This document shows, in pieces, positions 14,740-64,000 of a DNA stretch of 64,000 nt. A program made the translations under genes and the position numbers. The stretch lies in NCBI GenBank assembly GCA_010093815.1, contig ML996566.1, one strand, 5' to 3'. A model generated the notes under the pieces. The model searched no databases and was not told the origin of the DNA. It was given only the letters and a program-made list of their open reading frames with translations. This stretch comes from Pseudovirgaria hyperparasitica. Its lineage: Eukaryota. The first letter of the stretch is position 1, and every line of letters starts with the position of its first letter.

Positions 14740-16159
14740 TCATATATACCTTAGCATTTTCAACGGATAGACTATAATTCCGGCGATTGCAGTAAGGCCA
14801 GAGAATACAATCAACGGGCCATACCCACTTCCATATCCACCTATGGCATGTCCACGCCACGGCGCACCCTTCACCAACGCTTCGCTCAAAGGTCCAGATA
14901 TAAGATTTCCTATTCCGCGACCTAGCAATAGGCATCCCATCAATGAGATTGGGTCTCCGGGGCCATAGCCCGCAGCCTCGCCCTTTTGCGTGACTGTCTG
15001 CATGATGCCAGAGTAGATGCTTGTATAACCACCAGCGAAGAGGCCATACAGTATCGCGAAGACGTATAGCTGAGGTAGCTTTGTCGTCAGACCCCAGATG
15101 AGGAGCACCGAGACACTAGTACCGACCGCAGAGATGAAAACGCACATAGTTGTGGAGAGCTTGTCAGACATGAAGCCCATAATCACACATCCGAGAGTGG
15201 CACAGATGTTGAGCACCATAAGCGTCAACGCAGACAAGAAGTTCGGCGCCCCGAACTGTTCGCTCGCATACGACGGGAGGTAGATGCTTGGGAGGAAGTA
15301 TCCCGTGGCGTGTAGCACATTGATAAGCCAATAACACACAAACGTGCTCGAGAAAATGTATCGGAGATTGAGCGGCTGCACCTTCGACGCCATCGACTGC
15401 GGTATCCTGGGTCGAACGAAGAATGCGAATGGAGCAGTGAGCGCGAAGGTGACACCGGCCCAGATCCGTAATGTCGTCCGAAAGCCGAGTTTGTCGAGCA
15501 TGACTTCGAGCACGAGGGGGATCACTACACCTCCGACGCCTGCGGCGCTCCATGCGATGCCGTACGCCAGCCCTTTGCGTTTGTCGAACCATTCGTCGAT
15601 GTATACGATGCAGGGCGAGTACGCGAGACAGCCGCCGACGCCGAAGAGGACGCCTTGGACGCCGATGAGCTGGTTGACGGTGTTGCATAGAGAGGCAAGG
15701 CCCAGGGACAGAGTCGCGAGGATGATTCCAAAGAGGGAGAACCAGCGGGACAAGCGAGGGAAATGGCGAAGGAGCGGCGTGACGAAAGGTGTAGCAAAGT
15801 ACAGGATACCCTGTCCTCGTCAATTGATACGAACGAATATTCTCGCAATCCAAGTAACATACCTGGGTAGTGGTTCCAATCACGGCAATGCTTCCTTGAC
15901 CTGCGAAGGGCTCATGACGGCTATAGTGGTCCTGGAAGATACCGAAGCTGAATGCGAAGCCGTATATCATGGCTTCGAAAACCCAACATGCGCTCAGGAA
16001 TAGCCATGCTTGCTTGCCGGTGTCGGCAGGCGGGATGTCTGCTTCAGTTTTTGGATGGTGGAAGAGAGAAGTACGTTCGGTGTGTTCTTCCCGCCGGCCA
16101 CTCGCATTGGGGGTTGCTCGACTTAAGCCGTCATCGAGGGTGCCAAAATTCCGAGCCAT
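14740..16159 (-). CDS. MFS transporter, monocarboxylate-porter (Mch-like) family; cluster transporter candidate
   Basis: PPADTGKQAWLFL, FSFGIFQDHY, DEWFDKRKGLAYG motifs, many hydrophobic helices; one intron near 15811-15862. Confidence 0.88.
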
Positions 16160-17372
16160 CGTCGCTGGTTCAAGCCGTGACAGGTATGATACAAGGTGGA
16201 CACGCTAAACAAGTCAAATTCGTCGTCGTGAGGTGTGTCGAAGATTTAAGGTTCGAAGAGGTAGGGACGAGGGATGCGGCGCTGAGCAGCGGCGCCGCCA
16301 AATTAGGTTCCCGTTCTTTTTTGAACCGGAGACATGATGCAATATATTGGCCTATGCGCGGATAATGTAGGATAACCCTGAACAGGATGAGTTTTGGACG
16401 TAATCATGACCTTGGAAAAGTCTTGGATTTTGCGCCCAGCGTTGTACATGTCTGTGCAACGAGAGAGCGTCGTCTCTAATGTAACCTCGTCGTCGCCCTT
16501 AGTCCGGCACTAGAGCATTCAGTTTGAATGTCTCATGTCTCATGTCTCATGCTAAGTGTTCGTCGAGTGTAGGCTAGCGTGACGATCAAGTGGAAGCTAA
16601 CGTGGCGATCGAGTGTTCGCATGTTTGCTTTTTTGACGGGGGCTCGGAGTACCTGATGAGCCTTACTATCTGACCCTTCACTTCTCGCCCCGGTGCTACA
16701 TATACGCGTCCAGCCGCATGATTACCATAGTAACAGCATAAGCCACCGCCACCACATGTGCAGAACGTGCTGATTCCAGGAGTTGGGATCAATCAACCGG
16801 ACAGATTCTACCAATACCGATAGGTCCTGTTTCAAAACAAAAGACGTGAGTGTAATATTTTCATGCAGTAGGACGACCTATCAATCTCATTCTTCGGAGT
16901 CTTATGTTGTTATGTTGTTACCAACACATCCAACAAATGTTGTTCAAGCATTGTTCATACCCGCATCTTACTTGCATCGATGGATTTCCTTGATCTGAAA
17001 CCTCTTCCTTTCCAAGATCTCAGGGGTCGGAGCGGGTGGGGGCACAATTGTTTTAACGACGGTAGACCCACTTCAGGGTCAAACCCCAGCCGCAGTCACG
17101 TTTGCCTGGACAAAGACTCTAGAAGCACACTTGAACCACGAGCCGAAGTGACGAGTCAGTTGTGTTCGGCAGCCAAGGACGTAAGGATTCATCACAACGC
17201 TACATCGACCAAAGTGGAAAGTGGTCACGTGGTGTTTATTTAAAGATCAGTCATACCTGTTCTATGGAAACCTTGGAACATTTTCGGCGAGTACTCATTG
17301 CGCTCAGACGGTTCTCAATGACTCAGCAAGTACGCGGCTACCGTCCTGTATAAGTCCTCACTTCATCATCAA

Positions 17373-18502
17373 TCAGTAATACATGATGGCTGTACGATGG
17401 GCATGGTATTGCAGCGCAGTCATCTCCTTATACTTGGACGTGGTCCCTTCCGGCACAAAGAGTGGGATCGGGCCTGCAGAAGTCGCTCGATTCGCCTTCA
17501 AAAAGAAAGCGACCGAGTAACGCTCTGGAAACACCTCACCCTTGACGTCGCTTGGAACGGTCACTTGATGTAGCCCGGCCTGCACTCTCCCATTTGTCCA
17601 TCTCTCGAGTGTATCACCCACGTTGATAAGCAGCTCGGTCTTGTCTACCAACGGCACCGGTAAGTAGCCACCCGGTACATTCTTGTCCTCGATCTCCAGC
17701 CCACCACTCGTGCCCTGTGCCAGCAACGTCAGAATGCCAAAATCTGTGTGTGGCCAGATCGGCATGAGCTTGCCGTCCGCCAGCTTGGACAGCGGTGTCT
17801 CTGGATAGTGGATCATGCGAATCTCGCTCGCATGGCCTTCGCAGCGGTCCACAAGGGCGTCTTTGGGCAACTCCATGGCTACCTCGAGTGCTCGCATCAG
17901 GTCGAGTGATAGCTGCTGCCCTTTTTCGAAGTATTTCTCCATCCACGATTGAAACCCGGGGGCTGCAGAGTTGGAGGGGTAGACGTTGGGGAACTCTGGG
18001 TCGCCGACAGGGCCCATGTCGAAGTGCTCCTGAAGGGCATCACGTGAGCCTGTGAAGTCACAGAATTTTCGTTTGATACCATACCTTCAAGTCTGTGCGG
18101 CCTACGTTGTCGACCATGTCCATACTGATGGTAGTGTCGTTGATCTCTCGCGTCCCAGGTAAGTTCAATGTGGCTGTCGATTCAGCACCAGGGTGACTCC
18201 ATCCTCGTTGAGGCTTGGGACCCTTCACATTCGCGAACTTCTCCTTTTCCTCTTTCGGTAGAGTGAACATAGAAGCGCTCTATGGCTCGTCAACATTTTC
18301 TCCACAATAAGTCTATGTTCGAGACTAGACGTACCTGCTTGAACAACATGGTCATATCCTCCTCAGTCAGGCCATGGTTGACAAGCTTGACGAAGCCGGC
18401 ATCTGTCAGGCCCTGAAGAAATTGGTTGGAAAACTCTCGCTGCTCCGACTTGGTACCATGGAATTTGGCCATGTCCAGCGTCAAAAGATCCATGTTGATC
18501 AT
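17373..18502 (-). CDS. 2-oxoglutarate/Fe(II)-dependent dioxygenase (isopenicillin N synthase-like family), 3 exons
   Basis: GFVKLVNHG N-terminal motif, PQRGWS, HTD..H iron triad (WPHTDFG, GLHQV), RYS cosubstrate motif; introns near 18281-18335 and 18031-18084. Confidence 0.92.
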
Positions 18503-18784
18503 GTTTGCGTTGTTATGTGAGAGGATGGCTCTCACGGCGTGTGGAATGGGGAAGTGGTATCAAGACCCTGTCTGTGAATATCGATCGAGGACAATGCAGT
18601 TGTGGTAACCAGGTCTCTTAAGGTATATGTAGGTACGTATATAGTGGCTCCATGAAGCGCAGGCTTCGCTGTGGCATAAAGCATGTATGCTACTCCGCTT
18701 TAGCACACCGGCCTTGCATCCGATGTTCAACAGTATGTAAGTCGGATGTCCGAGCCTTGTCGTTTGTTCATGTAGCTGGTGAGT

Positions 18785-18950: not shown

Positions 18951-19341
18951 TTCATGCTCGGAGCTAGATGCATAGGGGCCACATCAGAACAACACACTGT
19001 TCAGTCATTCGTTGCTCAACACTCTAGCAAGTTTGGTGTCATGCTTAGAATAGATCTAAAACTTATCCGAACGAGTAATACACTCTTCGCTTGGCACTCT
19101 GGCAAATTCATTGTCATACTTGGAATTGGATCTATGAGGCTTCTAAGCAAGTAAGGTTAATTGATTACTCAGTGTCAAACTACACGCCTTCAACGAGAAA
19201 AGATCATTATGAACCAGACGACTACGCTTCCGAACAAACAGAGCAAAATACTCGTCCTCTCCCAAGGTCGTACTACGTATTGGAAAAAATCAAAGACACT
19301 CTTGCTCCTGTTTCCGATCATATTACAACATTGTTTCAACA

Positions 19342-20547
19342 TCATGACTCAGGGGAGTTCGTCTTCTTGAGTACAGCCTTGAAGAACTCACAGAGTCTTT
19401 CGAAAGCTTGCTCGCTAATCTGATAGTGGAAGCAGATACGCCCATACAATGGTGCTCCTATCTTCAGTCCGAATTGACTTGACATAGGGTAGAAATCCTC
19501 ATCTCTCAGACCAGAGGCTTCAAGATCGAACCAGATTATGTTTGTTTCTGTGGGTAATTGAAGCTTTCCGCCGTGCTCTTCCCAAACAGACGAAGCATAT
19601 CTGGCCTTTTCTTGTGCGGATCTCAACAAACCACCAAGAAATACTGTTTCTATTGCTACTCTTGCTGGCGCAGCAATCACACCAGAACTCCGAGTGCTAC
19701 CACCCAGAAGCTTGCGACCCCACTTTGCACGTTTGATGAATGCAGAACTCCCGGTGACAATGCTGCCAAGTGGAGCACCGAGTCCTTTTGTAAAGCACAT
19801 CTGGATACTATCGAAACACTCTCCCATGTCACGCAGTGTGCAGGCTCCAGCAGCGACTGCTTCCCACACTCGAGCGCCGTCTAAATGCATATGAATAGGA
19901 GGCGTCTGAGCACGAGCCCATTTCGAGATGGCACGAATATCAGACAGAGGGAATATCGTCCCCCAAAGAGTATTTTCTAAGCTTATTACCCGAGTAGGAC
20001 AGTCGTATACGCTTTCGGTGATGGTGGCGTGTTTCTTGACATCGGCCAAAGTGAGATGATGGCCGTTGGATGGAACGACTTGCTTGATCATGGCGCCACA
20101 GACACTTGAAGGCCCCCCGCCTTCTAGAATGATAATGTGCCCACGATGATCGGCCAAAATTGAATGAGGCGGGCTGGTGAGAGCAGACCGGAGAGCCACT
20201 TGATTTCCCATGGTCCCTGACATGACCAGAAGAGATGCCTCATGGCCCACGAGGCCAGCAACGTATTCCTGGAACGAGTTCGTTGTTTCGTCCTCATCCA
20301 TATCGCCATCACCTAGCGTTGTAGCGCTTATAGCAGCTAGCATTGGTAATGTAGGAATGGTAACAAAGTCGGATCGGAAATCATTGGAAGATCTGTCGCT
20401 CCGTGCCCACGCAAGATGCTGGAGACACTTCATATCTTCAGTAAGCCCAGAGATCTTTGAATCATCGTTGTGAGTCTTTGATGGGACAAAACGCGTGGGA
20501 GTAGACACGTCCTGCGCCTTCTCTGGGTCAATTAAAGATGGTGCCAT
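19342..20547 (-). CDS. PLP-dependent threonine aldolase (GLY1)/fungal alanine racemase family enzyme, intronless
   Basis: NDFRSD, SGTMGNQ, ISLENT, HLDGAR and CFTKGLGAP (PLP lysine) motifs; likely start MAPSLIDP at 20547. Confidence 0.9.
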   Translation of the reverse strand: MAPSLIDPEKAQDVSTPTRFVPSKTHNDDSKISGLTEDMKCLQHLAWARSDRSSNDFRSDFVTIPTLPMLAAISATTLGDGDMDEDETTNSFQEYVAGLVGHEASLLVMSGTMGNQVALRSALTSPPHSILADHRGHIIILEGGGPSSVCGAMIKQVVPSNGHHLTLADVKKHATITESVYDCPTRVISLENTLWGTIFPLSDIRAISKWARAQTPPIHMHLDGARVWEAVAAGACTLRDMGECFDSIQMCFTKGLGAPLGSIVTGSSAFIKRAKWGRKLLGGSTRSSGVIAAPARVAIETVFLGGLLRSAQEKARYASSVWEEHGGKLQLPTETNIIWFDLEASGLRDEDFYPMSSQFGLKIGAPLYGRICFHYQISEQAFERLCEFFKAVLKKTNSPES

Positions 20548-20734
20548 AGTTTCTCGATGGTCACAAGTCTTCGAATAGAGGCAGAAGCTCGCCCTAAGAG
20601 GGACTTTGGACAAAACATGAGGATTCAGAACTCGTGAGAAGACTCGTAAACATGTAGCTGCTCTTTGGACGAATTCCTTCCATCCAGAGCAGGAGGTGAG
20701 TAAGCTGCGCAGTGTTGAGTAAGACCGGACCTGG

Positions 20735-20770
20735 TCGGAGCGGGGCCTGCTAGTGATATCGGAGCGGGGC
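20735..20770 (+). promoter_or_regulatory. Two copies of TCGGAGCGGGGC (CGG-N2-CGG) in the divergent aldolase/NRPS-PKS promoter; candidate Zn2Cys6 sites
   Basis: Exact 12-bp copies at 20735-20746 and 20759-20770; related motifs at 17027-17036 (+) and 18789-18798 (-). Function is inferred. Confidence 0.55.
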
Positions 20771-21402
20771 ATGCACAAAAAATCGGGGTGCATGTTGTGT
20801 TTTAGACACCCGTACGCATGTAGGTTATGAAGCCGTCGTATAGAGTAGTGAGAATCATGTCCGGTTACCGTAAAGGGGGATCCGTAACTTGCTTAGAACC
20901 TAATTATCTTGGCGTCAGAACATGGTGCTACGTTGGCCTCATGAACATAGTAAAATTATGCGAGGCAGTGTACGCAAATCATGTAGTGTCATTACCATTG
21001 TTGACAAGAAGATAATCAGCAGCGACTTGATCCGAACTAGGATTCATGACCAAGTCCCTGATAGGTCCAGTTGAGTACTGAACGCAAGCCACCGGCCGTC
21101 TAGAGCGATAACAAGAAAAGGGGACGTGAATCTTGACGATCAGGTACAAACGTGGTAGTATCATGTGAAGTTGCATGCAAGCATACGTGAAAACATCCCA
21201 GGTCATGTTTGAGAAAGCATTCAGGGCTCTCGGGTCTGTGCCACCAAGTCCGCCAAACGTGCGTCCGATTCAATGTTTGGAATCGGACGTCGAATCAAGT
21301 CAAAAGTATGACGAATTCCGGTTATCGAAAAAGGTCTGAATCCCAGAACGTTTTCCGTACACTCCTACCAGGCACACCAGTTGTCGCGGCGATCAAGAAA
21401 AG

Positions 21403-24400
21403 ATGAGCTTTACATCTGCTGCCCATCATGACTTCAACAACTTGACCGATGACAGTACGAAGCTCGGCCACTGCCTACCACATCTCCTTGAGCATGTTGC
21501 AGAAACATATCTCACAAATACTGCCGTCATATGTGGATCGAGAGAATTGACCTATGGAGAACTCAATCGAAGCGCAAACGTTTTAGCTGCGGTGCTAAGA
21601 AATCGAGGCATCGGTCGCGGTGACTTGGTTGGGATTGCACTGGACCGCTCACTTGATTTGGTAGTAGTGTTGATTGCTGTGTTAAAGTCTGGCGCTGCAT
21701 ATTTGCCTATCGATCCGTCGTTTCCTACGGAACGAATCCGCCATATCCTTGAGGATGCCGAACCGAAGATCGTCGTTGTCGGAGACGCAACACGAGACAT
21801 CTCACAGACATGGGGTTACGCACGCCTAGATCTCGATGAAATCAGAGAAAGCAACGAGAAACTTGATGACAAGCCATTCGATGCCGACGCAGGACTGAGC
21901 GCGGAAGATTTGGCATACGTCATCTACACTTCTGGTTCTACTGGAAAACCGAAAGGCGTGGAGATTAGCCATGGTGCTCTTTCGAATCTGTTGCTTAGCA
22001 TGAAAGAAGAGCCTGGCTGTGACGACACAGATCGACTGCTTGCCATTACGACCATCTCGTTTGACATTGCTGCCCTGGAGCTATTTGTTCCGTTGCTGAG
22101 TGGTGGAACAACAGTGTTGGCTATGACACATGAGACTAGACTTCCTGAATCGATTATGGCCCTTATACAACGGCACAGTATTACGATGATGCAAGCTACA
22201 CCTGCAACTTGGCAAATGCTTCTGGACTTTGGCTGGAAGGGGGACCCTCGTCTCAGCAAGATCCTCTGCGGTGGAGAAAAACTGAGTACCCGCTTGGCAC
22301 GACGAATGCTTCCATGTGCGGAGGTTGTGTGGAATCTTTACGGTCCAACCGAAGCGACTGGTATGAGACCTTTCTAGCCTTTCGTTTGTTTTGTCTTGCT
22401 CACAATTATAGTTTGGGCGAGCGCCTGGAAAGTGTCACCAGACGAAGATGTTGTTATTGGCCGGCCAGTATCAAACTACAAGCTATATGTGCTCGATGCC
22501 GAGCTCGCCGTAGTCCCGGCTGGCACAGATGGTGAGCTTTACATAGGAGGCGCCGGGCTGGCAAGAGGATATCGAAACAAGTCAGAGCTCACGAGAACGA
22601 AATTTATTCATAACCCTTTCCATGAAGGTCTGATGTACCGAAGTGGCGATTTAGCTCGTTATGACGACCAGTTTAGAATCACGGTGGTAGGCCGTGCGGA
22701 TGGCCAAGTCAAAATTCGCGGTCATCGAATTGAGCTGGGTGATATTGAGGCTACGCTGAGTGAGCATCCGATGATCTCGGATGTGGTCGTCGTGAGTAAA
22801 GACGAGCGACTCATCGCTTACTACATCGCAAATTCTAGTGGAAGGAATCAAACTTCAAAGCTCGACAGCATGCTTCGATCATGGTTGACGGAGCGCCTCC
22901 CTGTGTACTCAGTGCCAGCATTCTTCGTAGTATTGGATGCCTTCCCAATGACGCTCAATAATAAGGTCGACAGAAACTCGTTACCAGATCCAGCGCACGC
23001 ACTTCAGCCTGTATTCACCAGGGAGATAACGAGTGTAGAGTCAAGCGTTAGGCTCATCTGGTCGAAGGTCTTGGGCCATGATCAGATCGGCCCATCAGAC
23101 AATTTCTTTGAAGTTGGTGGGAACTCTGTACTCGTAGTACAAGTCCAGAAGGAGTTGGAGAAACATTTCGCGAGGCGTATATCCTCGGCTTTGATGTTTG
23201 AGCATTTTACTCTTGAGGCTCTGTCAACATATCTAGAGACAACCACCGCAGCAGACAGTTCGCCTACGAAGAGTAATAATCTCCAGGACTTGGAGAAACC
23301 CTGTAGAACAAACAATATTCACACCAGAAAACCCTCTCAGCGGCATCCAGATGGAGATGAAGAGGCAATTGCAGTGGTTGGAATGTCATGCCGGCTCCCA
23401 GGAAATGTTTCTACTCCCCAGCAATATTGGGACATTCTCGAGTCTGGTGCCGATGTTATCTCGGAGGTGCCGCGAGATCGATGGGACGCCGACGCAATTT
23501 ACAGTGAGGACCCTGACGCCAAAGGGAAGTCTTACTGCCGCCGAGGTGGCTTTCTATCCTCGGTCGACCATTTCGATGCGTCGTTCTTTGGCATATCGCC
23601 GAGAGAGGCAACAATGATGGACCCAGCACAGCGCATAATGCTTGAAACCAGCTGGGAAAGCTTTGAGCGGGCTGGTTATACGATTGAAAGCCTACGCGGA
23701 AGCCAAACAGGGGTCTATATAGGTACATGCAATATCTCTGCACATACGACTGCGCCGCCTGGAGAGAGACTGGACGGCTACAACGTGACGGGTACCTCAT
23801 CTGGAACCATGTCCGGACGAATCTCGTACAGTCTTGGGCTTGAAGGTCCAAGTATGACAATCGACACCGCCTGTGCCAGTTCTCTGGTCACAACGCATTT
23901 GGCTTGCAACGCACTTCGTGCTGGTGAATGCGATGTTGCATTGTCTGGCGGAATTACACTCCTCCTAAACCCTGGTATGCACATTGAGTTCAGTAGACTT
24001 CAGGGAATATCAAGAGATGGGCGGTGCAGGGCATTTGCGAAAGACTCTGGCGGGACAGGGTGGGCTGAAGGTTGCACCTGTGTCGTGTTGAAGAGATTGC
24101 GCGACGTTAAACCTGGCGAGACCGTACATGCGCTCATTAAGGGGTCTGCAGTGAACCACGCGGGCCGAAGTGCTGCCGGATTGACCGTGCCGAGTGGGTC
24201 TGCCCAACAGTCCTTGATCCGTACCGCGTTGGCTTCCTCACAACTGGCCACTGATGATATCGACTATATCGAGACCCATGGCACAGGTACGAAACTTGGA
24301 GATCCTATTGAGGGGGGGTCGCTCGCAGCGGTGTTTGGCGGACGCAGACAGCCAGAGGGGCTTGGCGTACAGTCGAAAAGCCTCCCCCTATACATCGGAT

Positions 24401-27400
24401 CGTGAGTAGAGATGTCGTACAGACCTCGACTTCCATAACTAACAGAACTAGTGTCAAAAGCCAAATAGGCCATACTCAAGCAGCAGCGGGTCTAGCCGGA
24501 CTGCTCAAAGTTGTTTTGGCATTGAAAAATGGCAGAATTCCGCGAACTTTACATGCTACAGAGCCCTCTTTAGAGATAGATTGGCAGAGTGCGAATATGG
24601 AGTTAATCCAGCAACCTAAGTCGTGGCCCGAACAGACTGGCCGACCTCGACGGGCTGGCGTAAGTGCGTTCGGCATCGGTGGAACCAATGCACACGTGAT
24701 CGTAGAGGAATGTCCTTCGACAAGAGAACCACAGTCGGACGTGGTATCAGCAACCGACTTTCCATTCCTATTATCTGCCCATTCAGAAAATACACTCATT
24801 GAACAGGCCGCAAAACTTGCACGCCACCTTGAGAGCACCAGCGACTTTGATAGTGCTCGCCTCAGCTATTCACTGGCTACCACTCGGACTCATTTTCAGC
24901 GGCGAATTGCCATTCTGGCGAAGGACAAACCCACACTAATCAAAGAACTTCGTTCTGTCTCAAATTCAGCTGTTTCCACAACTACCAGTCAAAGGCCGTG
25001 CGTAGCAATGCTCTTCGCAGGGCAGGGAAGCCAGTATCTGGGCATGGGTAGGAACCTTTACCAAGTATATCCTGTATATCGAAATGCCATGGACCAAGTC
25101 TTATCACATTTCACCTCATTAGACGAAGGTAAATCGCTAAGAGAAGTCATGGAGGCCGTCCCAGGTAGCGATGACTCTCTACTCATAGATCGTACTAGCT
25201 TCGCACAGCCAGCCCTTTTCGCGCTAGAAGTAGCTCTATGGGAGCTTTGGAAGAGCTGGGGAGTACAGACAAAGCTGGCTATTGGTCACAGTGTCGGCGA
25301 GCTTTCGGCTGCTTACTGTGCTGGCGTCTGGAATCTAGCGGATGCCTGTCGTCTCGTTGCTGCGAGAGGACGACTGATGCAGGCTGTTCCTACTCGAGGC
25401 AGTATGGTCTCTCTTGAGGCTAGTGTTACAGAGGTATCAACAGCAATCGTTGAGGCGGGTGTGGATGGCTTGGTGAGCATCGCAGGCCATAATACTCCCA
25501 CGCAGACTGTGGCTTCCGGGGATTCGGACGCCATCAAAACCTTAATTACCTACCTCAGTACGTACGACCGCACTGTGAAGATAAAGCTACTTCCGGTCTC
25601 ACACGCCTTCCACTCGCACCACATTGATAGCATACTGGGAGACTATCAAGCGGTTCTCGATACTATGCGGTTCTCTTCACCCACGATACCAATCGTGAGC
25701 ACACTGACAGGCAAGCTAGCTCAGCCAGGCCAACTCGAAAGCCCCAGCTATTGGGTAGCGCAGGCGCGTAGAGCTGTTTGTTTTGTTGAAGGAATGCAAA
25801 CACTGAGTCAGGAGGGCGCCAATATCTTCATTGAAATGGGACCGCAATCAACTCTGACCGGGATGGGAGCAGCTTGTCTTTCCTCCGACGATTCTCTTGC
25901 CTGGCTACCATCGCTAGCAAAGAGTGGCAGGTCAGTGATACAGCATACAGTTACACAACTACATGTGCGAAGAGTTTCTATATATTGGCATGAGTATTTT
26001 GGATCGTTTGGTCGCTTTCAACCCGTGGAGTTGCCAACATATGCATTTCAGCGAGACTACTTCATTCCTTTGCGGAATCAGGGGAGGGAATTCTCCAAGC
26101 AGGACAACAACGCAAACGACCGAAGGCAACAGCAACGTACTAAACATGATACAATGGTTACAGACCGCTTTGCCTTTGAAGTTTCATGGCAACAACGAAA
26201 TCAGGAGCCGATAACTCCTCAAATTGGACTAGGAGGCAAAGGCTGCTCATGGGGGTTATTATGTGGCCCTTGCATGGACGGTGAACAACCTATAATGCCC
26301 CTGAAGCTAGCGTTATCACTGATGGGTATACAACTACTACCAGTGGCGAACATTTGCGAGGCTCAAACTCTACAGATTGATGGATTATTGTGTTTTTGGA
26401 ATTCCGGAACAAACTTGCCTAAAGCTCAGGTCCCCGACCATGTTCAGAAGTTGACCTCGGCTGGACTGCTACAGCTACAGGATGCAGTCCGCCTGCAGTT
26501 TCAGCCATGGATAGTCTGGGTCACACAGAACGCAATAGGAGCTGGTGCTGAGGATGATGGAGTCTCGGGACTTGCGGCGAGCCCACTATGGGGACTCATG
26601 CGCACTGCTCGAAATGAGCATCCCGAGCTGCGTATGCGTCTAATCGATCTCGACGTAAATCCCCACGATTTTACAAATTCGATTGGGTCTACGCTGAACA
26701 GTATGCTCAATTGTAATGCAGAGCCAGAATGTGCCATGCGACAGGGAAGGATTCTCGTCCCCCGACTGCAGCGGATCGACAAGAGCTCAATAAATCTACA
26801 GCCAGATCATGAAATTACGCTTCAAGATGGAGCAGTGCTAATCACAGGTGGTCTCGGTGTTCTCGGTCGTCACGTCGCCCGGTATCTGGTGCAGGTACAT
26901 CACATTCGACATCTCATCTTGACCTCGCGTCGTGGGATGGAAGCCAATAATGCATGCGCAACAATTGAGGAATTGACTGGACTTGGCGCGCAAGTCGCCG
27001 TAGTAGCATGCGAAATGGGCGATCCAGAAAGTGTGAAGCTACTTCTGGCCAGCTTTAATGACGCTGACTGCCCTCTACGTGGTGTTATCCACGCAGCTGG
27101 CGCACAAGACAACGGCGTCTTCACAGCGCTGACACCACAGCGATGTACCACGACATTTGCACCCAAGGTTTCGGGGGCTTGGTATCTTCATGAGCTTACT
27201 CAGGCTATGCATTTAGATTTCTTTGTAATGTTTTCATCTATATCTGGGATCATGGGTATGGAGGGCCACGCAAATTACGCGGCGGCTAACACGTTCCTTG
27301 ATGCACTCGCACATCTTCGTCGTGGAAAGGGCCAACCAGCAAGTTCTATCGCCTTCGGTCCATGGACAGGGGACGGTATGGCATCCAAAATCATCGACTC

Positions 27401-29123
27401 GACACGTGTGCGTCTTATCCAATCTGGACTCAATATGCTTGCACCCGAAGATGGATTGGAACTGCTGGCCCAGGCGATATCGAAGCGGCGTACGCTGACT
27501 GTTGCTGCCGCGTTAGACCTGGATCGACTACAGAGCTATCACGAAGACCGAGGTAACATACCGGGGCTACTACGCTCATTATTGCAACAGGGAGAGAAGA
27601 AGACTGTTGACCAAAGCCGGACCTTCAGTCAAACTATAGCCCAGGCCGCTCGCCAGGAGCGACCTCACATTACACTGAGCATAGTACAAGAGACTGTTGC
27701 GAGTGCACTGGGCTTCACTCTACCATCCCAGGTTGATATGGAAGCCACTCTGCAAGACATTGGAATTGATTCGCTCACCGCAGTTCTTATTCGCAACCGA
27801 CTGGCAAAGCTAACGGGCTTGAGTTTACCTGCCAGGTTTGTATTCCAGCACCCTAATTTAAGAGCGCTCAGCAATTTTCTGCTTTCCGAGCTAGAAGAAG
27901 AAAATTCCTCTGCATCTTCGCTGGACAATTCTACACCGAATACGACCCCATCCTCGTCACAGCTATGGCTCGACGTGGAGCCAATGAAACGAGGCTGCCT
28001 TGATGCTACTTTCACGTTTGGCAGCAAAGTCTCTACACCCCCGGAAACGGTATTTTTGACGGGGGCCACTGGCTTCGTGGGCGCGTTCATACTCCACGAG
28101 TTGCTGGAGCTTGGTGTGGAGGTCCATTGCCTGGTCCGCGCTGATGATGAGGCTCAGGGACTACAACGTTTGCTCAGCACTCTGTCAAATTATAGTTTGT
28201 GGAACGACAAACACAGCTCGTTACTCCATCCTATCATTGGCGACATGGCATTACCTCTTTTTGGGCTCACTGAAGACAAGTTTGCCGAGTTAGCAGATAG
28301 TGTTGATTCGATATGTCACTCTTCAGCATATTGCAATTGGATGGCTGACATAGGAGAGTATTTCGGCCCCAACATTGTCAGTGCCCATGAGGTTCTACGG
28401 CTGGCAGCACACGGGCGCGGGAAGGCTGTGCACATGATCTCCACGATGTCTACAATACCGAAGTATCTAGGCTACGATATTAGAGAGGACGATCCAGAGT
28501 TCGGATATGCAACTTCCAAATATACCGCGGAGAGACTTATGGTAGCTGGGCGTTGGCGAGGTGCAAAAGTATCCATCTACCGCCTACCTTTCGTTTCTGC
28601 ATCGACTGCAACCGGACATTTCCGTCTTGACCAGAAGGACTTTTTACACAACCTCATTTCTGGATGTTTGGAGATGAGCATGTTCCCCGAAATTGACGCT
28701 GACTTGTCGTCTATCATACCAGTCGACTATGTCTCCAGAACTGTCGCCAGCATCATGATGAGAGATACACATCGGATTGGGCAAGACTTCAATTTCACGA
28801 ATGGCAGTGCTCTCAGTTTTAACCAGTTCTTCACTTTCATTATCGGCAATAGCCCTGGGATCGAGATTGTTCCATTTTCGACATGGCGGAGCCATGCCTT
28901 GCGAGAAGCTGCCTCAAACACGTCAAGTCTCATAGCTCGGATCGTTCCTTTGCTTGAAGATGTCACTGATGATAAGGGGGCCTCGGCTATGGTTTCCGGT
29001 CATCCAGTGATCGAGCCGATTCTAGGAGTGAACGATTTTCCGGTGCCAATGGTTACTGAAGAATCTGCATCGAGATACGCAAAGCAAATCAGAAGTTCTC
29101 GGAAGCATTTCTGTGCCTATTGA
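21403..29123 (+). CDS. Hybrid NRPS-PKS megasynthase, A-T-KS-AT-KR-ACP-R (introns 22361-22411 and 24402-24451)
   Basis: A: YTSGSTGKPKG, NLYGPTE, YRSGDL, NNKVDR. T: FFEVGGNS. KS: DTACASS, ETHGTGT, KSQIGHTQ. AT: GHSVG, HAFHS. KR: TGGLGVLG, HAAG, NYAAAN. ACP: IGIDSL. Terminal reductase: FLTGATGFVG, GYATSK. The two GT-AG introns join the three ORFs in frame. Confidence 0.95.
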
Positions 29124-30488
29124 TCATGACAGACATTGTTATATATAGATATAAAAAAGGTTCATAGACATGGACGTCCAAATCTTCAAAGATGTCGCAT
29201 AAGATCAAACTGTATGGCTTAGACCGCCTTGGTTATCGTGGTCACTTGGCACACTGAGTATTTCTTCCTTGTCATTTTTCAGCCTGTGGACATGGTGAAT
29301 TCGAAGTACACTCAGAAAATAGCATTTCTTGCTCCCTCAGGGCTCTCAGGACTCCAGTATTTGCCTCATATTCATAGCCATCTGAGCATTAAGTCGTTAG
29401 GAGCTGGGAGTATCTAATAGAGCGTTAATTAAGCCATTCATAATGCAGCATAATGTTTTGCTGATCTGTAATTGCTCATGGCCCGCAATCTCGAATACCG
29501 CTCACATTGGAGTTGATACTCTTGTTATACTTATTTTGTTTAATTTATTGACACTATCAATACTGTTGCAATCCTACCTCGCTCCAGTCATATCTGTTGG
29601 TCCTCATTGGCTACCTAGGTCAACGTATATTAGTGTATTCAGCAAGCTTCTAGGAGAGTAGAGGACAACCTAACGTTCAATTCTTAACGTGCGCGATAAT
29701 TCCAACAGTACATGAGAGTACCGCACTCTATGGATCTGTACGAGGACCTCCGTGTGCAGGAAGACTGCAGACGAGATGTAACTAACCGCTTGTAGTGAGA
29801 CATTGGTCCACGTATCAGGAGGTTACTCCGGGAGCTAGCCGCATTATTAGTGCTTCAAATTGAAGACGTTGTACAAGTCCTCCGTCCAAAGGCCAGCTTC
29901 AGAACGTGTTGCAATGGGCAGCATCCGTTCTATCTTGACCATGAAGCTTTCATGTCCGTAAACATTGGATATCCATCTATCTTCCAGTATCCACATAAAA
30001 TAAGTTCATCGGAGTGCAGTGAGCCATGAAACACTCTAGTACATAGTATTTACCGCGGACTAAACAATCATTTGCATCTCGTGGAATGTGTTCCACTCTA
30101 AGCACGCAGTAGAGCCATATGTGTGATTGAATCGCTCAGGATTAACAGAATTGGCTACATGTTAGTATGGCTCCGACAGGACAGTACGGACACAGGATAC
30201 ATAACCCCCTTGTCAGGCAGTCGCCTAGTTGCTTTGAGTCCAGCTATGAACTAAACTATGGCTTTATGCAGTAACTATTTGGCGTCATGCAGTGGTTCTT
30301 TCGCGCTATGCAGGTCCCCGCTTACACACAGTAATTAGAATTTCCCAACACTCCTAGCGTTAGTAATCCCTCAGCTGAGGAGTACTGATATGGTTATGTT
30401 AGTGCACCCGCTTTTATGATCTAGCTAGTACCACTTTCTACGAAGCTCGAGCCTAAGGAGACGAGACTATAGACCGTGATCCTCGGCG

Positions 30489-31763
30489 ATGCAATGCTCA
30501 AACCAATATACAACCACGCACAATGACCTTCGTTCAGAAGAATTTGGCCGGCGATCAGCATGTGATAGGTGTCGAAGGATGAAGACACGCTGCGAGCGAC
30601 CGCAATACGGTGACAAGACACAGCTGCAACAATGCCGCCGGTGTATACAAGCTCAAACGAACTGTATCACCACTGTCGAGTCGCAATTACTTCCAGGAAT
30701 GATGCCAGATGAGCGAACACAACGCTACAAACGTCCTCGAACACCTTCTTTTGAGTCAATAGACACCGATCATCGGAATGAGTATACTGGAGCTTTTGGA
30801 GAGCAACAGCAAGACTTTTTCCTAGATGGATTCCTTGCACGATCTATAGCTGAGAGCACACCGTATACTCAATCAAGTGGGACAAATTCTGATCAAAACA
30901 TTTTACCACCATCCCGTACGGATCTACAATGGCTCGAGTTCGGGCACGATTTCGGCCTAGAAGAAAACCCGATTCCTGATAATCTAGCATTCCTTAGCAA
31001 AGTGGTTTCTCATGAGAGTAAGGAAGGCTTAACAAATGGAGACAATCCGGAAACCGCGGTGCCAATGGTGAACACAAATGAGACCGTCTCAGCAACAGAG
31101 AATGACTGTGGAATACCCCAGTGCAACAGACTGGTTGACCTGAGATCTGAATCTGAGCTGTCAAACCAAAGCGTAACAAGAGTACTACTAGAGTTCAATC
31201 ACAAAATCTCTTCAAGTTTACAGTACGATAACAACACGTCTCGGATTCACGATTGTATGGCCACGACTTTGGGACATTCCAAGAAATTTGTCGAGTTACT
31301 GAACAGAATCGTCCCGCATGAGCAAGCTATCGATATCACGGTCACTCCTAAGGATGCAACAGGCGAACTGCCAATACGAAGTAAACAAATCGACATAGAA
31401 ATTGCATTGCAAATTCTATCCTGCCACACGAGTATGCACATCATGTACGAGAAACTGTACAAGTCTCTTGTTGATCACGACTTTCAGCTAAAAGAAGCAA
31501 CCATACTGCCAGCGCTACAACTCGAGGGCCTGCAAGCACTGAGCTCTGATATGCGTAGTCACATGCTGGTACAAATCTGTATGCTGACTTTGGCAGAGAT
31601 TCAGGCCAAGATGAATTCAATAAGACGCAGTGGGTCACTGACGCCCATAGCAGCAAGGACCTTCGAAAGTGTGCTTGGGACAGACGCAAGTGAGCCATGG
31701 CGTCCGAGGGTCGGGGTGAAATGCGTCGCGGACGAGTTCCGAGATTTGCTTAGAAAAAAATGA
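30489..31763 (+). CDS. Zn(II)2Cys6 transcription factor, probable cluster-specific regulator
   Basis: ACDRCRRMKTRCERPQYGDKTQLQQCRRCIQAQTNC six-cysteine motif; next gene after the NRPS-PKS. Confidence 0.88.
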   Translation: MQCSNQYTTTHNDLRSEEFGRRSACDRCRRMKTRCERPQYGDKTQLQQCRRCIQAQTNCITTVESQLLPGMMPDERTQRYKRPRTPSFESIDTDHRNEYTGAFGEQQQDFFLDGFLARSIAESTPYTQSSGTNSDQNILPPSRTDLQWLEFGHDFGLEENPIPDNLAFLSKVVSHESKEGLTNGDNPETAVPMVNTNETVSATENDCGIPQCNRLVDLRSESELSNQSVTRVLLEFNHKISSSLQYDNNTSRIHDCMATTLGHSKKFVELLNRIVPHEQAIDITVTPKDATGELPIRSKQIDIEIALQILSCHTSMHIMYEKLYKSLVDHDFQLKEATILPALQLEGLQALSSDMRSHMLVQICMLTLAEIQAKMNSIRRSGSLTPIAARTFESVLGTDASEPWRPRVGVKCVADEFRDLLRKK

Positions 31764-36055: not shown

Positions 36056-39000
36056 ATGGAGGCACCGATCAGTATCGCTCAGGAGAACGAAATGTTTCGG
36101 CTTCGGTCCTACCAGACTGAAATGTTGGAGAAGAGCCTTAAGAAAAACATAATAGTGGCGGCAAGTCTGAAACGGCTTTCCCATTCTATGCCTTTCTGCG
36201 GCTAATGTTCATTTATAGATGGATACTGGTAGCGGCAAGACCCACATAGCCATTAGTAGAGCTCGAACAGAGTTGGAGACTTGCGACCCGTATAAAGTAT
36301 GTCTGTCACTGCCTGGTGCTGGTCACGTGTTCAATTCAAGGTTAATTGCCATTCAGATCGTCTGGTTTATAGCTCCGACTGTGGCTCTGTGCAATCAACA
36401 GTATCAAGTATTTCAGACACTACTGCCGGCGTACCAGGCTCGAAAACTCACAAGCATGGAGAATGTCGATACGTGGACCGACCAGCGAACGTGGGATGCA
36501 GTGCTTTACAATATGAGAGTAGTCGTTTCGACTCCGGATGTACTCGCTCAAGCTCTGACCCATGGTTTTGTTCCAATGACCAGACTGGCTTTGCTAATTT
36601 TTGACGAGGGTATGTCTGATCAATATAGTAATGCTGTATTTTTAACGCCACCCAGCCCATCATTGTACTAAGAACCATCCAATGAACAGGATTATGAAAG
36701 ATTTCTATCACAGAATGCGACGAAAGGACCCATCATTAGTACCGCCAATTCTCGGTCTCACTGCAAGCCCAGTGATCAACAGCAACCCAAAAGCTTTGCA
36801 GTACGTACACCAGATATAATATCTGCCGCTCTCTGACATTCTCAGAACAATCGAGCAGAACTTGGATTCTCACGTCACCATTCCTAAGATCCATCAGACT
36901 GAATTCTTGCAGCACGTGCATCGACCTAATTTGGAACCAGTATTCTTTCAGGTCGACCTCCCAGTGCGAAATGTCAGAGGTAGTGCCATTATGACAGCAC
37001 TACAGGAAGCATATCATGGTTATGATCTCGCGAGTGATCCGTATATCCAGGACTTGTATGAAAGGATGCGCTACGATCCGACCGCCGAATGCAAACTTAG
37101 TAAGGCGTTCGCGAAGGAATCCACATATTGCCTGGAACAGCTGAAGTCCATTCAGTCTAGGGCCTATAGCGTGTGTGAGCAGCTTGGCGCATTTGCAGCT
37201 GAACGTTACATCGTGCGATGTGTAGACCGGCTCAAAGACGCGGCTGAAATGAACGAGGAGTCACAGATGCTCGGCTGGTCCGGGCGAGAAAAGACTCATT
37301 TGATGGCATTGCTTCGTAAAATTGTAGCACCAGTATCTTCTGGGCCTCCTGCAGAGGGTATATCTGCTAAGGCTACTGCCCTGATAAGCTATCTCAAGAA
37401 AGCATACCATAAGGACTTCAGGGGTCTTATCTTCGCCGAAAGACGAGCTGTGGTGAATGCTCTTGAAGATGTGATCCGAAATGATCCCGACCTGAAACAG
37501 TCTTTCCAGGTTGGGGCATTCGTGGGTACTTCTTCATCTTCGAGTCGATCCAAGGACGTTGCAGAACTGGTTGATATCAAAGGTCAAGACCAAACCTTGA
37601 AGGACTTTCGAGAGGGTCGTAAAAACCTCATAGTGACCACCAGTGTCCTTGAGGAAGGCATTGATGTCCCAAATTGTAACGTCGTGATATGTTTCGATGC
37701 GCTAACAAACCTGAAGATGTATGTGCAGCGCAGAGGCAGGGCCAGAAAAATGGCCTCGAATTTCATGATCATGATACCTCAAAACGCATTAGAGTCGTCT
37801 TCGGTGACAGAATGGTCCACACTGGAGCAGATCCTGAAAGAGGAGTATGCCGATGAGTCGCGTCAGATCAAGCCTATGAACAGTACAGAGTTAATCGACG
37901 AGGCTGATGACTACAGCCTGTATGTCGACTCGACGCAGTAAGTAGTACAGCCCCTTATCTGTTCTCATTCGCAATGCTCTGCTTACTAGCTGTCTATAGA
38001 GCCTTACTTACTTCCGATGGCGCATTGCCTCATCTTTTTCACTTTTGCGCCACCCTCAGGACAGGTCCACATACGGACCACCGACCTGAATTTAAACTCG
38101 ATACAGATGACGAAGGCTGTTTTTCGGCAGAGGTTACCCTTCCGCTGGCTGTGGACGCCTCTCTCCGACGTCACAAGGGTATTTCGAAGTGGAAAAATGA
38201 GAAAGACGCGAGAAAGGATGCTGCCTTTCAAGCCTACAAGGCCTTGCATGAAGCCGGATTGATTGGCAGCAATTTGTTGCCTTTGCACGGTGAGGTTAAT
38301 GGAGCACCTCAATGCGATATGATAGATGACCGCCCAGCCATGGTACCAGTCAATCCAAGGATAGATCCTTGGGCCCTTCACGCGACAGCTATAGGAAACC
38401 AGCGCTACGCGTATCGCATCCGGTTCTCTAGTACTAACCACAGTTGTGAGTTTGACGTGATGACGACAATGCCTTTACCTACAATTCCACCATACAATCT
38501 ATATTGGAACAAGTCGCTCGTATATGAGGTCTCCTATGAGCTCCAGAGGGACCAACCCATGCATATAGAAGACGATCTGGTTGCATCGCTCCAAAAAGTC
38601 ACCTACCATCTCTTGTCATCAAGTCTGGGTTCACACCGCTTAGTTTCCAACAAGTTCGACTTTGTCGTGCTTCTATTACCCAACATAGAGCTTAGTACTT
38701 CTGCCGTCGACGACTTTGTAGCGACCACATCTGGGGCTCGACCAGCAACGATCCTCGAGAAGTATCCAACCATGGATGGCCATTCAAGTCGTCTTGGACT
38801 GGTGCGGCGTCATGGAGCCAGTGAACGATTTATGCTTCAAAAAATAAATGAAAGAGTAGATGAACAATCACAAGGCTCCAAGGAATATGTTTTGAAGGTG
38901 AGTAAGTTTCCAAAGAGAAAAGACTTCCTTCACCAAGTGGACGCCCGGGAAAAGCAAAATCCAGCGTATACAGCTGTATTGGAACTTGAACTGGCGGACA

Positions 39001-40598
39001 GTGTCATCGAAATGTTGCCAGCAGATCTTGTCACTGCTGTGACCTTTGCGCCTTGCGTCTTGCATCGTCTAGAAGTTTACATGGTGGCCCAAAATCTTTC
39101 CGCTGGCATATTTGCTCCTGTTGGTTTCACTGATGTGCATCTCGTTTTGACAGCTTTGTGTGCCACGTCGGCTAGAGAGCATGTAAACTATCAGCGCATG
39201 GAATACCTCGGTGATGCCTTACTCAAGTTCGCCTCTTCGATCCGCCTAATGGCAAGAAATCTTACCTGGCCAGAGAGCTATCTCACAGCCGAGAAAGGAC
39301 GCACCGTCTCAAATGGATACCTTGCCAAAGCATCTCTGGATGCTGGTCTCGATCAATACATCATCCGAACAGGATTTACCGGCGCCAAGTGGCAACCGCA
39401 ATACTTATCTGATGTGCACGCTCGACAATATGAAAAACAAGAAGCCAAACAGAAAGACAATATTTCTACTAAAACCTTGGCCGATGTTGTTGAGTCCTTG
39501 ATAGGCGCATCATATTTGTCTAGAGGTCGGATATCTGATGCATTGACATGCATGCAGATTCTACTTCCCCGGGAACCATGGCTTTCGATACATGATGCCA
39601 ACAAGATTCTCTTCTCAGCGGCCCCAGAAATATCTGGTATTCCGCCCTCGCATTTCAAACCGGTCGAAGAACTGTTAGGCCACACCTTTGATCGCGTATC
39701 TATTCTTACTGAAGCCCTGACTCACCCATCGTACTCACCACCACACCATGAGCGAATATCCTCCTACCAAAGACTCGAGTTCCTCGGCGATGCCGTGATC
39801 GACTACATTATCTCGACAAGATTGTACGCACACAATCCACCGCTGTCGCACGGTCTAATGCATACGTTCCGCACCGCACTTGTCAACGGATACCTCCTCG
39901 CCTTTCTTATGTTTGAGCTTAAGATCTCCGAAGTGCGCTACGAGCTTCCAACGACGGCAAAACGGAAGTGGGACTCCGTCGCCGAGCCTGGAATCCAGGA
40001 CTTCACCAGGTCGTTATATCAGTTCTTGCGTCACAACTCGCCAGAGTTACTGCACGCTCGGCATGCAACCCATGCGCGTCATATGGGCCTTCGCGCAGCA
40101 ATTCTCGAGGCACTATACAACGGGCATGAATATCCTTGGGCGGAATTGGAACAAGCCAGGGCCGAGAAGGTTTTTTCTGATATCGTTGAGAGCGCCATAG
40201 GTGCCATCTACATTGATTCGCATGGCTCATTTGAGGCTTGCGAGAAGTTTCTTGAGAAGCTGGGGCTGTTCAAGGCCATGCAGCGGATGGTCGCCGGGCA
40301 GTTGGACTGCCTGCATCCGAAGGAACGGCTAGGGCAGCTCGCGGTGAACGACAAAGTTTTGTACGAACATGTCAAGAAATCGGCCGGTGCAAAGGCGAAA
40401 CCTGGCCACAGTTCAGAGGGCTCTACTACCTCGCGTCCTGCACCCGGCTATGTATGCCGCGTCAGAGTGGGCGACAATTATATAGGTGATGCTGTCGAAG
40501 GAGTGTTAAGGTCGGAAACAGAGACACTGGCAGCGTGGAGGGCATGCCAGGTGATTCGAACACAGATGTCAGTTGATAACTCGACGATTTCTGGGTAG
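36056..40598 (+). CDS. dcl2: Dicer-like protein 2 (DExH helicase, helicase C, dimerisation domain, two RNase III domains, degenerate dsRBD)
   Basis: [12 protein letters not shown], spliced [31 protein letters not shown], RNase III signatures [10 protein letters not shown] and [17 protein letters not shown]; about 5 introns. The start codon is approximate. Confidence 0.93.
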
Positions 40599-63200: not shown

Positions 63201-64000
63201 GCCTTCAGAGGTTTCGGTGGCCCACAAGGAATCTTCATATGTGAGTCAATGATGGTAGAAGTCGCGGATCACATGAAGATTCCTGTCAACAAGCTACGCG
63301 AACTCAACATGTACAAGTCCGGTGATAAGACTCACTTCAACCAGGAACTCAAGGACTGGTTTGTACCCCTAATGTGGGATCAAGTCAAGCAAGAATCTGA
63401 TTACGAGCGTCGTGAACGTGAAGTCGAGAAATTCAATGAGACGCACAAATGGAACAAGCGCGGCCTTGCTCTCATCCCAACAAAGTTTGGTATCTCCTTC
63501 ACTGCGCTTTTCCTGAACCAAGCCGGTGCTCTCGTCCATATCTATCATGATGGCTCCGTCCTGCTCGCTCACGGCGGCACCGAGATGGGCCAAGGCCTGC
63601 ATACTAAAATGATCATGATAGCAGCTGAAGCCCTCGGCGTCCCGCAGGATAATGTCTTCATTTCCGAGACCGCAACGAACACAGTCGCGAACACTTCATC
63701 AACTGCTGCTTCTGCGTCCAGCGACCTTAATGGTTATGCTATTTGGAATGCCTGTTCAGAACTCAACAAGCGTCTCGAGCCGTATCGAGAGAAACTAGGT
63801 AGGGACACACCAATGAGTAAACTTGCCCACGCAGCATACTTTGATCGCGTCAACTTGTCCGCCCAGGGCTTCTATAAGACACCCGAGATTGGATATGTAT
63901 GGGGCGCAAACAAGGGCATGATGTTCTACTACTTCACACAGGGTGTCTCCGCCGCCGAAGTTGAGATCGACACGCTCACGGGTGATTGGACGTGCCGGCG
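60296..64000 (+). CDS. hxA: Xanthine dehydrogenase (3'-partial)
   Basis: 2Fe-2S motifs [37 protein letters not shown] domain AGRQIRNVG; Moco motifs GGGFGGKE and [10 protein letters not shown]. Introns near 60521-60577 and 60781-60830; frame stays open to the window end. Confidence 0.95.

Follow-up and report, generated by a model that had tools for sequence, protein, structure and literature searches.

We suggest that the fungus Pseudovirgaria hyperparasitica encodes a hybrid enzyme that loads glycine with an adenylation (A) domain of bacterial descent. The enzyme, here called the synthase, combines a nonribosomal peptide synthetase (NRPS) with a polyketide synthase (PKS). Its gene lies on the plus strand of a 64,000-nucleotide stretch of contig ML996566.1 (GenBank assembly GCA_010093815.1), which we call the window. 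In our reading the synthase is a paralogue of SwnK (the swainsonine synthase) and of the NPS7/PKS24 type, with an A domain that derives from glycine-activating domains of bacteria and retains their full pocket; we give this reading a probability of about 0.7. Glycine is, with much the same confidence, the best reading of what the A domain loads. The synthase would probably build a small glycine-derived alkaloid rather than one of the swainsonine type.

The gene family was known before, as were its architecture and its origin in bacteria; the substrate prediction and a conserved aldolase partner are new. In the database the synthase is named "nonribosomal peptide synthetase 7". Lawrence et al. 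(2011; PMC3226686) showed that, in the NPS7/PKS24 hybrid, the A and ketosynthase (KS) domains group with sequences from bacteria, and they argued for an early bacterial transfer to the Pezizomycotina. This published bacterial origin of the NPS7/PKS24-SwnK family would explain the close fit of a fungal A domain to a bacterial code.

The pocket of the spliced A domain

The ten-residue pocket of the spliced A domain reads DILQLGLVWK (D221, I222, L225, Q264, L288, G290, L312, V320, W321, and K504). We anchored it on the conserved motifs FD.., TP.., GGE, and N.YGPTE and on the lysine of the A10 motif (codons in Table 1). An earlier note on this DNA, made by eye, had quoted peptides that give D, I, L, Q, L, G, and L, and the translation contains all of them in frame. 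The note had also placed a split valine codon across an intron at 22361–22411. This is borne out by the translation, by the database protein P0124 and by contigs of two sequencing runs. The span it had given for the pocket, 22050..22425, holds nine of the residues, but the lysine codon at 22963–22965 lies outside it.

Splicing is needed to complete the pocket. The frame of exon 1 runs into GTATGA and stops at TAG 22375–22377 if intron 1 is left in place, and pocket positions 330/331 would then be G and M. Removal of the intron restores the frame: g (22360) and tt (22412–22413) together encode Val, followed by WASAWK. In one contig of about 10.5 kb from each of two public runs, 51 nucleotides (cut +1) and 50 nucleotides with GT..AG ends are skipped exactly. 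The two runs belong to one sample of one study, and neither is on record as RNA, nor is the kind of library. We infer that the intron-less contigs are most simply transcript assemblies.

The pocket residues are numbered here by the corresponding GrsA positions. Their placement draws on alignment endpoints to GrsA (1amu), on alignments to AB3403 and DhbF and on MAFFT columns; positions 235–322 are placed without a residue-by-residue alignment to 1amu. The HMMER endpoints align exon 1 residues 28–319 with 1amu 44–329, so that T319 equals 329, and exon 2 residues 8–194 with 1amu 341–527, so that K504 equals 517. The anchors D235 and K517 are both present, as D221 in FDIAAL and K504 in NNKVDR. Residues 666–769 of AB3403 align to the end of exon 1 and residues 771–964 to the start of exon 2; the single residue in between is that of the split codon. 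GrsA 1amu was not among the best 60 of 61 matches in a pocket-only search of the PDB (E up to 10).

As a control, we read the same MAFFT columns in 219 other A domains, taken from multimodular NRPS hits. They yield codes such as DVWHFSLVDK, DFWNIGMVHK, and DAFWLGGTFK, which we take to be the standard Ser, Thr, and Val codes. The formal alignments confirm the pocket as it had been read by eye.

One could argue that the code is a frozen inheritance and that the gene is a decaying or silent relic without present function. The family is patchily distributed and its product is not known, which is what one might see for a relic. However, the frame is open over 2540 codons with its motifs intact, precisely spliced contigs occur in both runs, and its clade retains the pocket at an A-domain identity of only about 60%. 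We regard a relic as highly improbable.

The pocket compared with bacterial glycine codes

DILQLGLIWK is the canonical glycine code of bacterial NRPSs; this exact string was not found in the searchable literature. The ten letters of the synthase recur identically in 23 of the 219 other A domains. All of the five commonest codes in that set, which together account for 119 domains, read DILQ[LF]G[LM][IV]WK, and the same is true of the A domains that score highest against that of the synthase.

Published assignments fit these letters. A 2025 survey lists 93 Gly-activating domains, and for 83 of these the signatures differ at 299, 322, and 330 only (PMC12283262). It gives DILQLGMIWK as a Gly signature, with L/M at 322, I/V at 330, and W at 331 as the glycine-derived residues. 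In the nocamycin cluster, DILQLGVI has been assigned to Gly (PMC5466765).

Structures lead to the same group of enzymes. The pocket-only PDB search (residues 215–319) matched AB3403 best (2.1e-21), followed by DhbF 5u89 (6.5e-19), and the next match was at 4.2e-14. According to a review (PMC10510592), 4ZXI contains AMP and glycine, 5U89 is the A domain and peptidyl carrier protein (PCP) of the first module of DhbF, and the two DhbF modules are for glycine and threonine. The readable pocket letters are DILQLGV.. in AB3403 (4ZXH/4ZXI) and DILQLGL.. in DhbF module 1, and AB3403 shares the motif ATPATW.MLLD with the synthase. In contrast to the synthase, both are bacterial peptide modules of the condensation-A-PCP order, have no introns and do not stand ahead of a KS. 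Module 2 of LgrA is the best whole-domain PDB match; we rejected it as evidence on the pocket, where it has other letters and scores 4e-3 in the pocket-only search.

The earlier note had called the pocket a bacterial glycine code. The identical strings, the survey and the two best structural matches agree with it, and, judged from sequence, the ten letters are a genuine code of this kind.

Some latitude in the code has to be considered. The survey describes signature pairs that are common to Ala, Ser, 2-aminobutyrate (Abu), and Gly (PMC12283262), and the aldolase that accompanies the synthase could, by the chemistry of its family, work synthetically. This leads to the alternative that the substrate of the A domain is a different amino acid, either small or made by the aldolase, for example Ala, Ser, sarcosine, beta-alanine, or a beta-hydroxy amino acid made from glycine and an aldehyde. 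We think that this is rather unlikely. All eight variable pocket residues fit glycine codes, such codes are the ones found in the 83 of 93 surveyed Gly-activating domains, and the Ser, Thr, Val, and Cys-type codes in our alignment are unlike DILQLGLVWK.

Ancestry of the A domain

Of the 126 family sequences from which we extracted A domains, 117 had one. In a tree of 148 A domains that we built with FastTree, rooted on the domains with Ser, Thr, and Val codes and without the short row P0224, the fungal family is nested among the glycine-code domains of bacteria (supports 93 and 100). The clade of 16 to which the synthase belongs (support 84) and three basal fungal branches keep DILQLG[LM]VWK. 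The clade of 30 that includes the named SwnK proteins (support 100) departs from it, with DMLQIGVYGK in 24 members, DMLQLGVYGK in five and DMVQIGTYGK in one. Because the basal branches and the clade of 16 keep the code and the SwnK clade departs from it, it is simplest to regard the glycine code as ancestral and the SwnK pocket as derived. Elsewhere in the family, clades have different pockets again (DPLVIGMVVK, DTLILGMVIK, DMLQLGMVYK, and DIAQVAAIYK), which suggests several substrates within one architecture.

Three Bipolaris proteins form the sister group of the synthase (support 66), and together they belong to a clade of 7 (support 99). Over the PKS part, its closest database proteins are 53–56% identical and are called "nonribosomal peptide synthetase 7" (Xylona, Lindgomyces) or PKS15 (Bipolaris). 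Over the A domain, identity is about 62% to the NPS7 group, 56% to two bacterial proteins of the order formyltransferase-A-T-KS (T, thiolation), 51% to SwnK and 46–47% to other bacterial glycine-code domains. We found no difference between the synthase and NPS7/PKS24 of Cochliobolus (Bipolaris) or the SwnK-like clades, which are apparently of the same kind.

The two bacterial proteins, P0098 and P0099, share the A-T-KS order with the synthase and have the pocket DILQLGMVW. They differ by an N-terminal formyltransferase domain and, in one of them, also a methyltransferase; both records are partial. The formyl-glycine loaders of oxazole polyketides are probably of this formyltransferase-A-T-KS type. 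In the tree, P0098 and P0099 (one from a Streptosporangiaceae metagenome-assembled genome) fall within the fungal clade, beside Aspergillus and Hypoxylon, with a weak support of 35.

We also scanned metagenomes with exon 1. The scan returned 80 loci, the best 47% identical, all of them generic NRPSs and none an orthologue. Two metagenome A-T-KS fragments, P0052 and P0060, are 59–63% identical to the synthase, have the same code DILQLGLVWK and end near synthase residue 919. Both read uninterrupted across the position of intron 1; hence, intron positions differ among relatives. That intron 1 splits pocket codon 330 is incidental to function.

Comparison with SwnK

SwnK of Metarhizium, Slafractonia, and a Chaetothyriales symbiont has the same architecture as the synthase, A-T-KS-AT-KR-ACP-R (AT, acyltransferase; KR, ketoreductase; ACP, acyl carrier protein; R, reductase), and belongs to the same family of bacterial descent. 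The release chemistry is likely common to both, namely reduction followed by cyclization on the amine. A preprint reports that SwnK uses L-pipecolate in vitro to form 1-hydroxyindolizidine (bioRxiv 10.1101/2024.09.26.615303).

SwnK orthologues are more than 70% identical among themselves, according to Cook et al. (2017). The synthase and SwnK share the architecture, but their identity is only 46–48% in the PKS part and 51% in the A domain, the synthase falls outside the SwnK clade, and it has neither SWN neighbours nor a SwnK-type pocket. The named SwnK proteins read DMLQIGVYGK, as counted directly from the A5 motif, and are without one residue after this motif (NVYGPSETT-YGS vs NLYGPTEATVWAS). 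Among the frames scanned from 10.5 to 36.8 kb, we found no set of swnH1, swnH2, swnN, and swnR near the synthase, as there is only one dioxygenase and no reductase of the NmrA or short-chain dehydrogenase/reductase (SDR) type. By identity, tree position and neighbourhood, the synthase is not a SwnK orthologue.

Nevertheless, a SwnK-like substrate deserves attention. The synthase could load a cyclic imino acid (pipecolate, proline, or a methyl- or hydroxyproline supplied by its neighbouring dioxygenase) and yield an indolizidine or pyrrolizidine. Architecture and family are those of SwnK, an L-pipecolate user in the preprint cited above, the adjoining dioxygenase is closest to UcsF, which has a role in methylproline formation, and a paper on Hypoxylaceae counts P. 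hyperparasitica among the fungi with "similar unreported" swainsonine-like clusters. However, the pocket of the synthase keeps I236, L299, L322, V330, and W331, all five of which the SwnK clade has changed in addition to losing one residue. Its A domain is closer to the bacterial formyltransferase-A-T-KS proteins (56%) than to SwnK (51%). In the scanned interval there is neither a reductase of the SwnN or SwnR type nor a second dioxygenase, and aldolase partners accompany the glycine-code clade, not the SwnK type. We consider a cyclic imino acid unlikely.

A threonine aldolase as conserved partner

Head-to-head with the synthase gene, and transcribed divergently from it, lies a gene for an enzyme of the threonine aldolase family. 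The match to Beta_elim_lyase covers Pfam positions 1–285 of 288, and the region of the lysine that binds pyridoxal phosphate (PLP) is conserved. L-allo-threonine aldolase 3wgc is the best PDB match (3e-44), in an alignment that includes HLDGAR and TKGLGAP, which we take to be catalytic motifs. The frame, 19345–20892 on the minus strand, is open for 516 codons; from its first ATG it encodes 401 amino acids, and the database model P0245 has 363 (91% of the query covered). Glycine is the usual substrate or product of this family, whose enzymes can also act synthetically.

The aldolase is a conserved partner of the glycine-code members of the family and not of the SwnK type. We judged that two genes share a contig from the equal longest-contig size of their records, a figure that 115 family members have. 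Among the best 120 of 1636 aldolase matches, homologues 68–79% identical to the aldolase of the window share a contig with 14 of these 115 members. Ten of the 17 members with DILQLGxxWK (the window included) have such a partner, compared to four of 61 with other codes, none of 28 of the SwnK type and none of nine without an A domain. Six of the shared contigs are only 14–97 kb long. In Cercophora, the locus tags of aldolase and synthase are consecutive. A further aldolase of this species, 58% identical, lies on a different contig, which argues that the aldolase of the cluster is a dedicated paralogue. Our literature search, the reach of which ended short of supplementary tables, found no paper that links SwnK relatives to an aldolase or NPS7 to glycine.

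Weighing the substrate prediction

Several points weigh against glycine as the substrate and against the bacterial glycine pocket as its explanation. The pipecolate-loading SwnK differs at five pocket positions only, and because of this a glycine-like code alone is no proof of a glycine substrate in the NPS7/SwnK family. The Slafractonia SwnK paralogue P0137 has DILQLGMVWK, and Cook et al. presumed one of the two Slafractonia paralogues to make slaframine, which is derived from pipecolate. If P0137 is the slaframine enzyme, the glycine code could mislead. The accessible parts of two papers give no experimental data for SwnK-like clades (PMC7864672, PMC5473758). Our tree is a single-domain FastTree tree with the pocket columns kept in. 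The aldolase counts are from one representative per 90% cluster and from its longest contig, which means that misses are no proof of absence and that hidden partners were missed; on Mb-sized scaffolds, a common contig is not adjacency. Finally, with its UcsF-like dioxygenase the cluster could make a non-standard amino-acid substrate before loading. Having set these points beside the evidence from code, tree and aldolase, we hold to glycine at the probability given at the outset.

Proposed pathway and product

Under our reading, the A domain would adenylate glycine and load it onto the T domain. The KS would then condense glycine with malonyl-ACP, a single malonate extension, and the KR would reduce the keto group. 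The terminal reductase would release 4-amino-3-hydroxybutanal, which should close to a five-membered imine and give a hydroxypyrroline or hydroxypyrrolidine. By analogy with SwnK, which takes pipecolate to 1-hydroxyindolizidine, a hydroxypyrrolidine-type product would be expected.

The aldolase might either provide glycine by acting on threonine or, in a later step that forms a C–C bond, add glycine as the nucleophile to the aldehyde or imine that the synthase releases. The dioxygenase would tailor the product and the major facilitator superfamily (MFS) transporter encoded nearby would export it. A more specific version is tentative, and we would not be surprised to see it fail: in a pathway not yet described, the aldolase captures the released amino-aldehyde or cyclic imine with PLP-bound glycine in an aldol or Mannich reaction, and the UcsF-like dioxygenase then oxidizes the adduct. 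The result might be a new class of glycine-derived polyhydroxylated pyrrolidine or amino-polyol alkaloids, similar to iminosugars, that could be widespread in Dothideomycetes, Sordariomycetes, and Leotiomycetes.

Gene model and neighbouring genes

The three exons of the synthase gene (Table 1) translate into 2540 residues that begin with MSFTSAAHH, and Pfam assigns the product the domain order A-T-KS-AT-KR-ACP-R. Checked by eye, all of the motifs are intact (GGNS, DTACASS, HGTGT, GHSVG, HAFH, the glycine-rich loop of the KR, YAAAN, GIDSL, GATGFVG, and YATSK). We assume that HAFH marks the acyltransferase as malonyl-type. The database protein P0124 equals our spliced model, including the junction at intron 1, and departs from it only at the intron 2 acceptor, where it has two additional residues (ST). 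An acceptor at 24451/24452, rather than the annotated one, is supported both by the contigs from the two runs and by the KS motif GSVKSQIGH.

The run contigs (10,507 and 10,349 letters) reach about 2.2 kb past the ATG of the synthase and about 5 kb past 24700. Their span would be about 19100–29750 and may include the divergent aldolase gene, although they were compared over 21403–24700 only.

Beyond the aldolase, a dioxygenase and an MFS transporter are encoded on the same strand, and a transcription factor candidate lies on the far side of the synthase. The best PDB match of the dioxygenase is UcsF 9ktp (4.5e-47), and thymine dioxygenase follows at 8.6e-27. UcsF oxidizes a free amino acid and works in the formation of methylproline. 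Further out, the genes appear to be housekeeping genes (Fis1, Spc24, a RING protein, GH43, Dicer). A gene of the xanthine dehydrogenase type at 60813–63998 runs off the end of the window.

Table 1. Positions of the synthase gene, its domains and pocket codons, and its neighbours in the window (nt, nucleotides).
Feature	Position	Strand	Basis or remark
NRPS-PKS hybrid gene (NPS7/SwnK-like)	21403..29123	+	exons 21403–22360, 22412–24401, 24452–29123; translation, Pfam, database protein, run contigs
Intron 1	22361..22411	+	51 nt, GT..AG; in-frame TAG 22375–22377; splits Val codon, pocket position 330
Intron 2	24402..24451	+	50 nt, GT..AG; joins LYIGS to VKSQIGH in KS domain
Adenylation domain	21490..22965	+	Pfam AMP-binding and AMP-binding_C; alignments to AB3403, DhbF, LgrA; MAFFT column mapping
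Pocket codons D, I, L	22063–22065, 22066–22068, 22075–22077	+	FDIAALELF
Pocket codon Q	22192–22194	+	MMQATP
Pocket codons L, G	22264–22266, 22270–22272	+	KILCGGE
Pocket codon L	22336–22338	+	WNLYGPTEAT
Pocket codons V, W	22360+22412–22413, 22414–22416	+	across intron 1
Pocket codon K	22963–22965	+	NNKVDR
Thiolation (PP-binding) domain	23047..23235	+	Pfam; GGNS motif
Ketosynthase domain	23362..24557	+	Pfam; DTACASS, HGTGT, SVKSQIGH; intron 2 inside
Acyltransferase domain	25011..25916	+	Pfam; GHSVG, HAFH
Ketoreductase domain	26829..27368	+	Pfam
ACP domain	27684..27881	+	Pfam; GIDSL
Thioester reductase domain	28056..28742	+	Pfam NAD_binding_4; GATGFVG, YATSK
Threonine-aldolase-family PLP enzyme	19345..20547	-	ATG by eye, stop 19342–19344; Pfam Beta_elim_lyase (PF01212) 2.7e-66
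2-Oxoglutarate (2OG)/Fe(II) dioxygenase	~17376..18559	-	about three exons; Pfam 2OG-FeII_Oxy and DIOX_N pieces
MFS transporter	~14743..16204	-	two overlapping frames; Pfam MFS_1 7.7e-24
Zn(2)Cys(6) transcription factor candidate	30480..31760	+	Pfam Zn_clus 1.3e-4
Dicer-like gene	36219..40598	+	DEAD/helicase C, Dicer dimerization domain, two RNase III domains

Implications for the family

SwnK is the only characterized member of this horizontally acquired family of fungal NRPS-PKS hybrids, and it is commonly supposed that the SwnK-like clades turn pipecolate into indolizidine analogues. Our analysis offers a sequence rule that separates the pipecolate loaders, with ..VYGK and a deletion of one residue, from the clades with the ancestral glycine pocket, and the rule ties the glycine-pocket clades to a threonine aldolase partner. 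For these clades we would predict that glycine goes in and that a monocyclic scaffold of the hydroxypyrrolidine type comes out. In genome mining, clusters with the glycine pocket should hence not be labelled swainsonine clusters.

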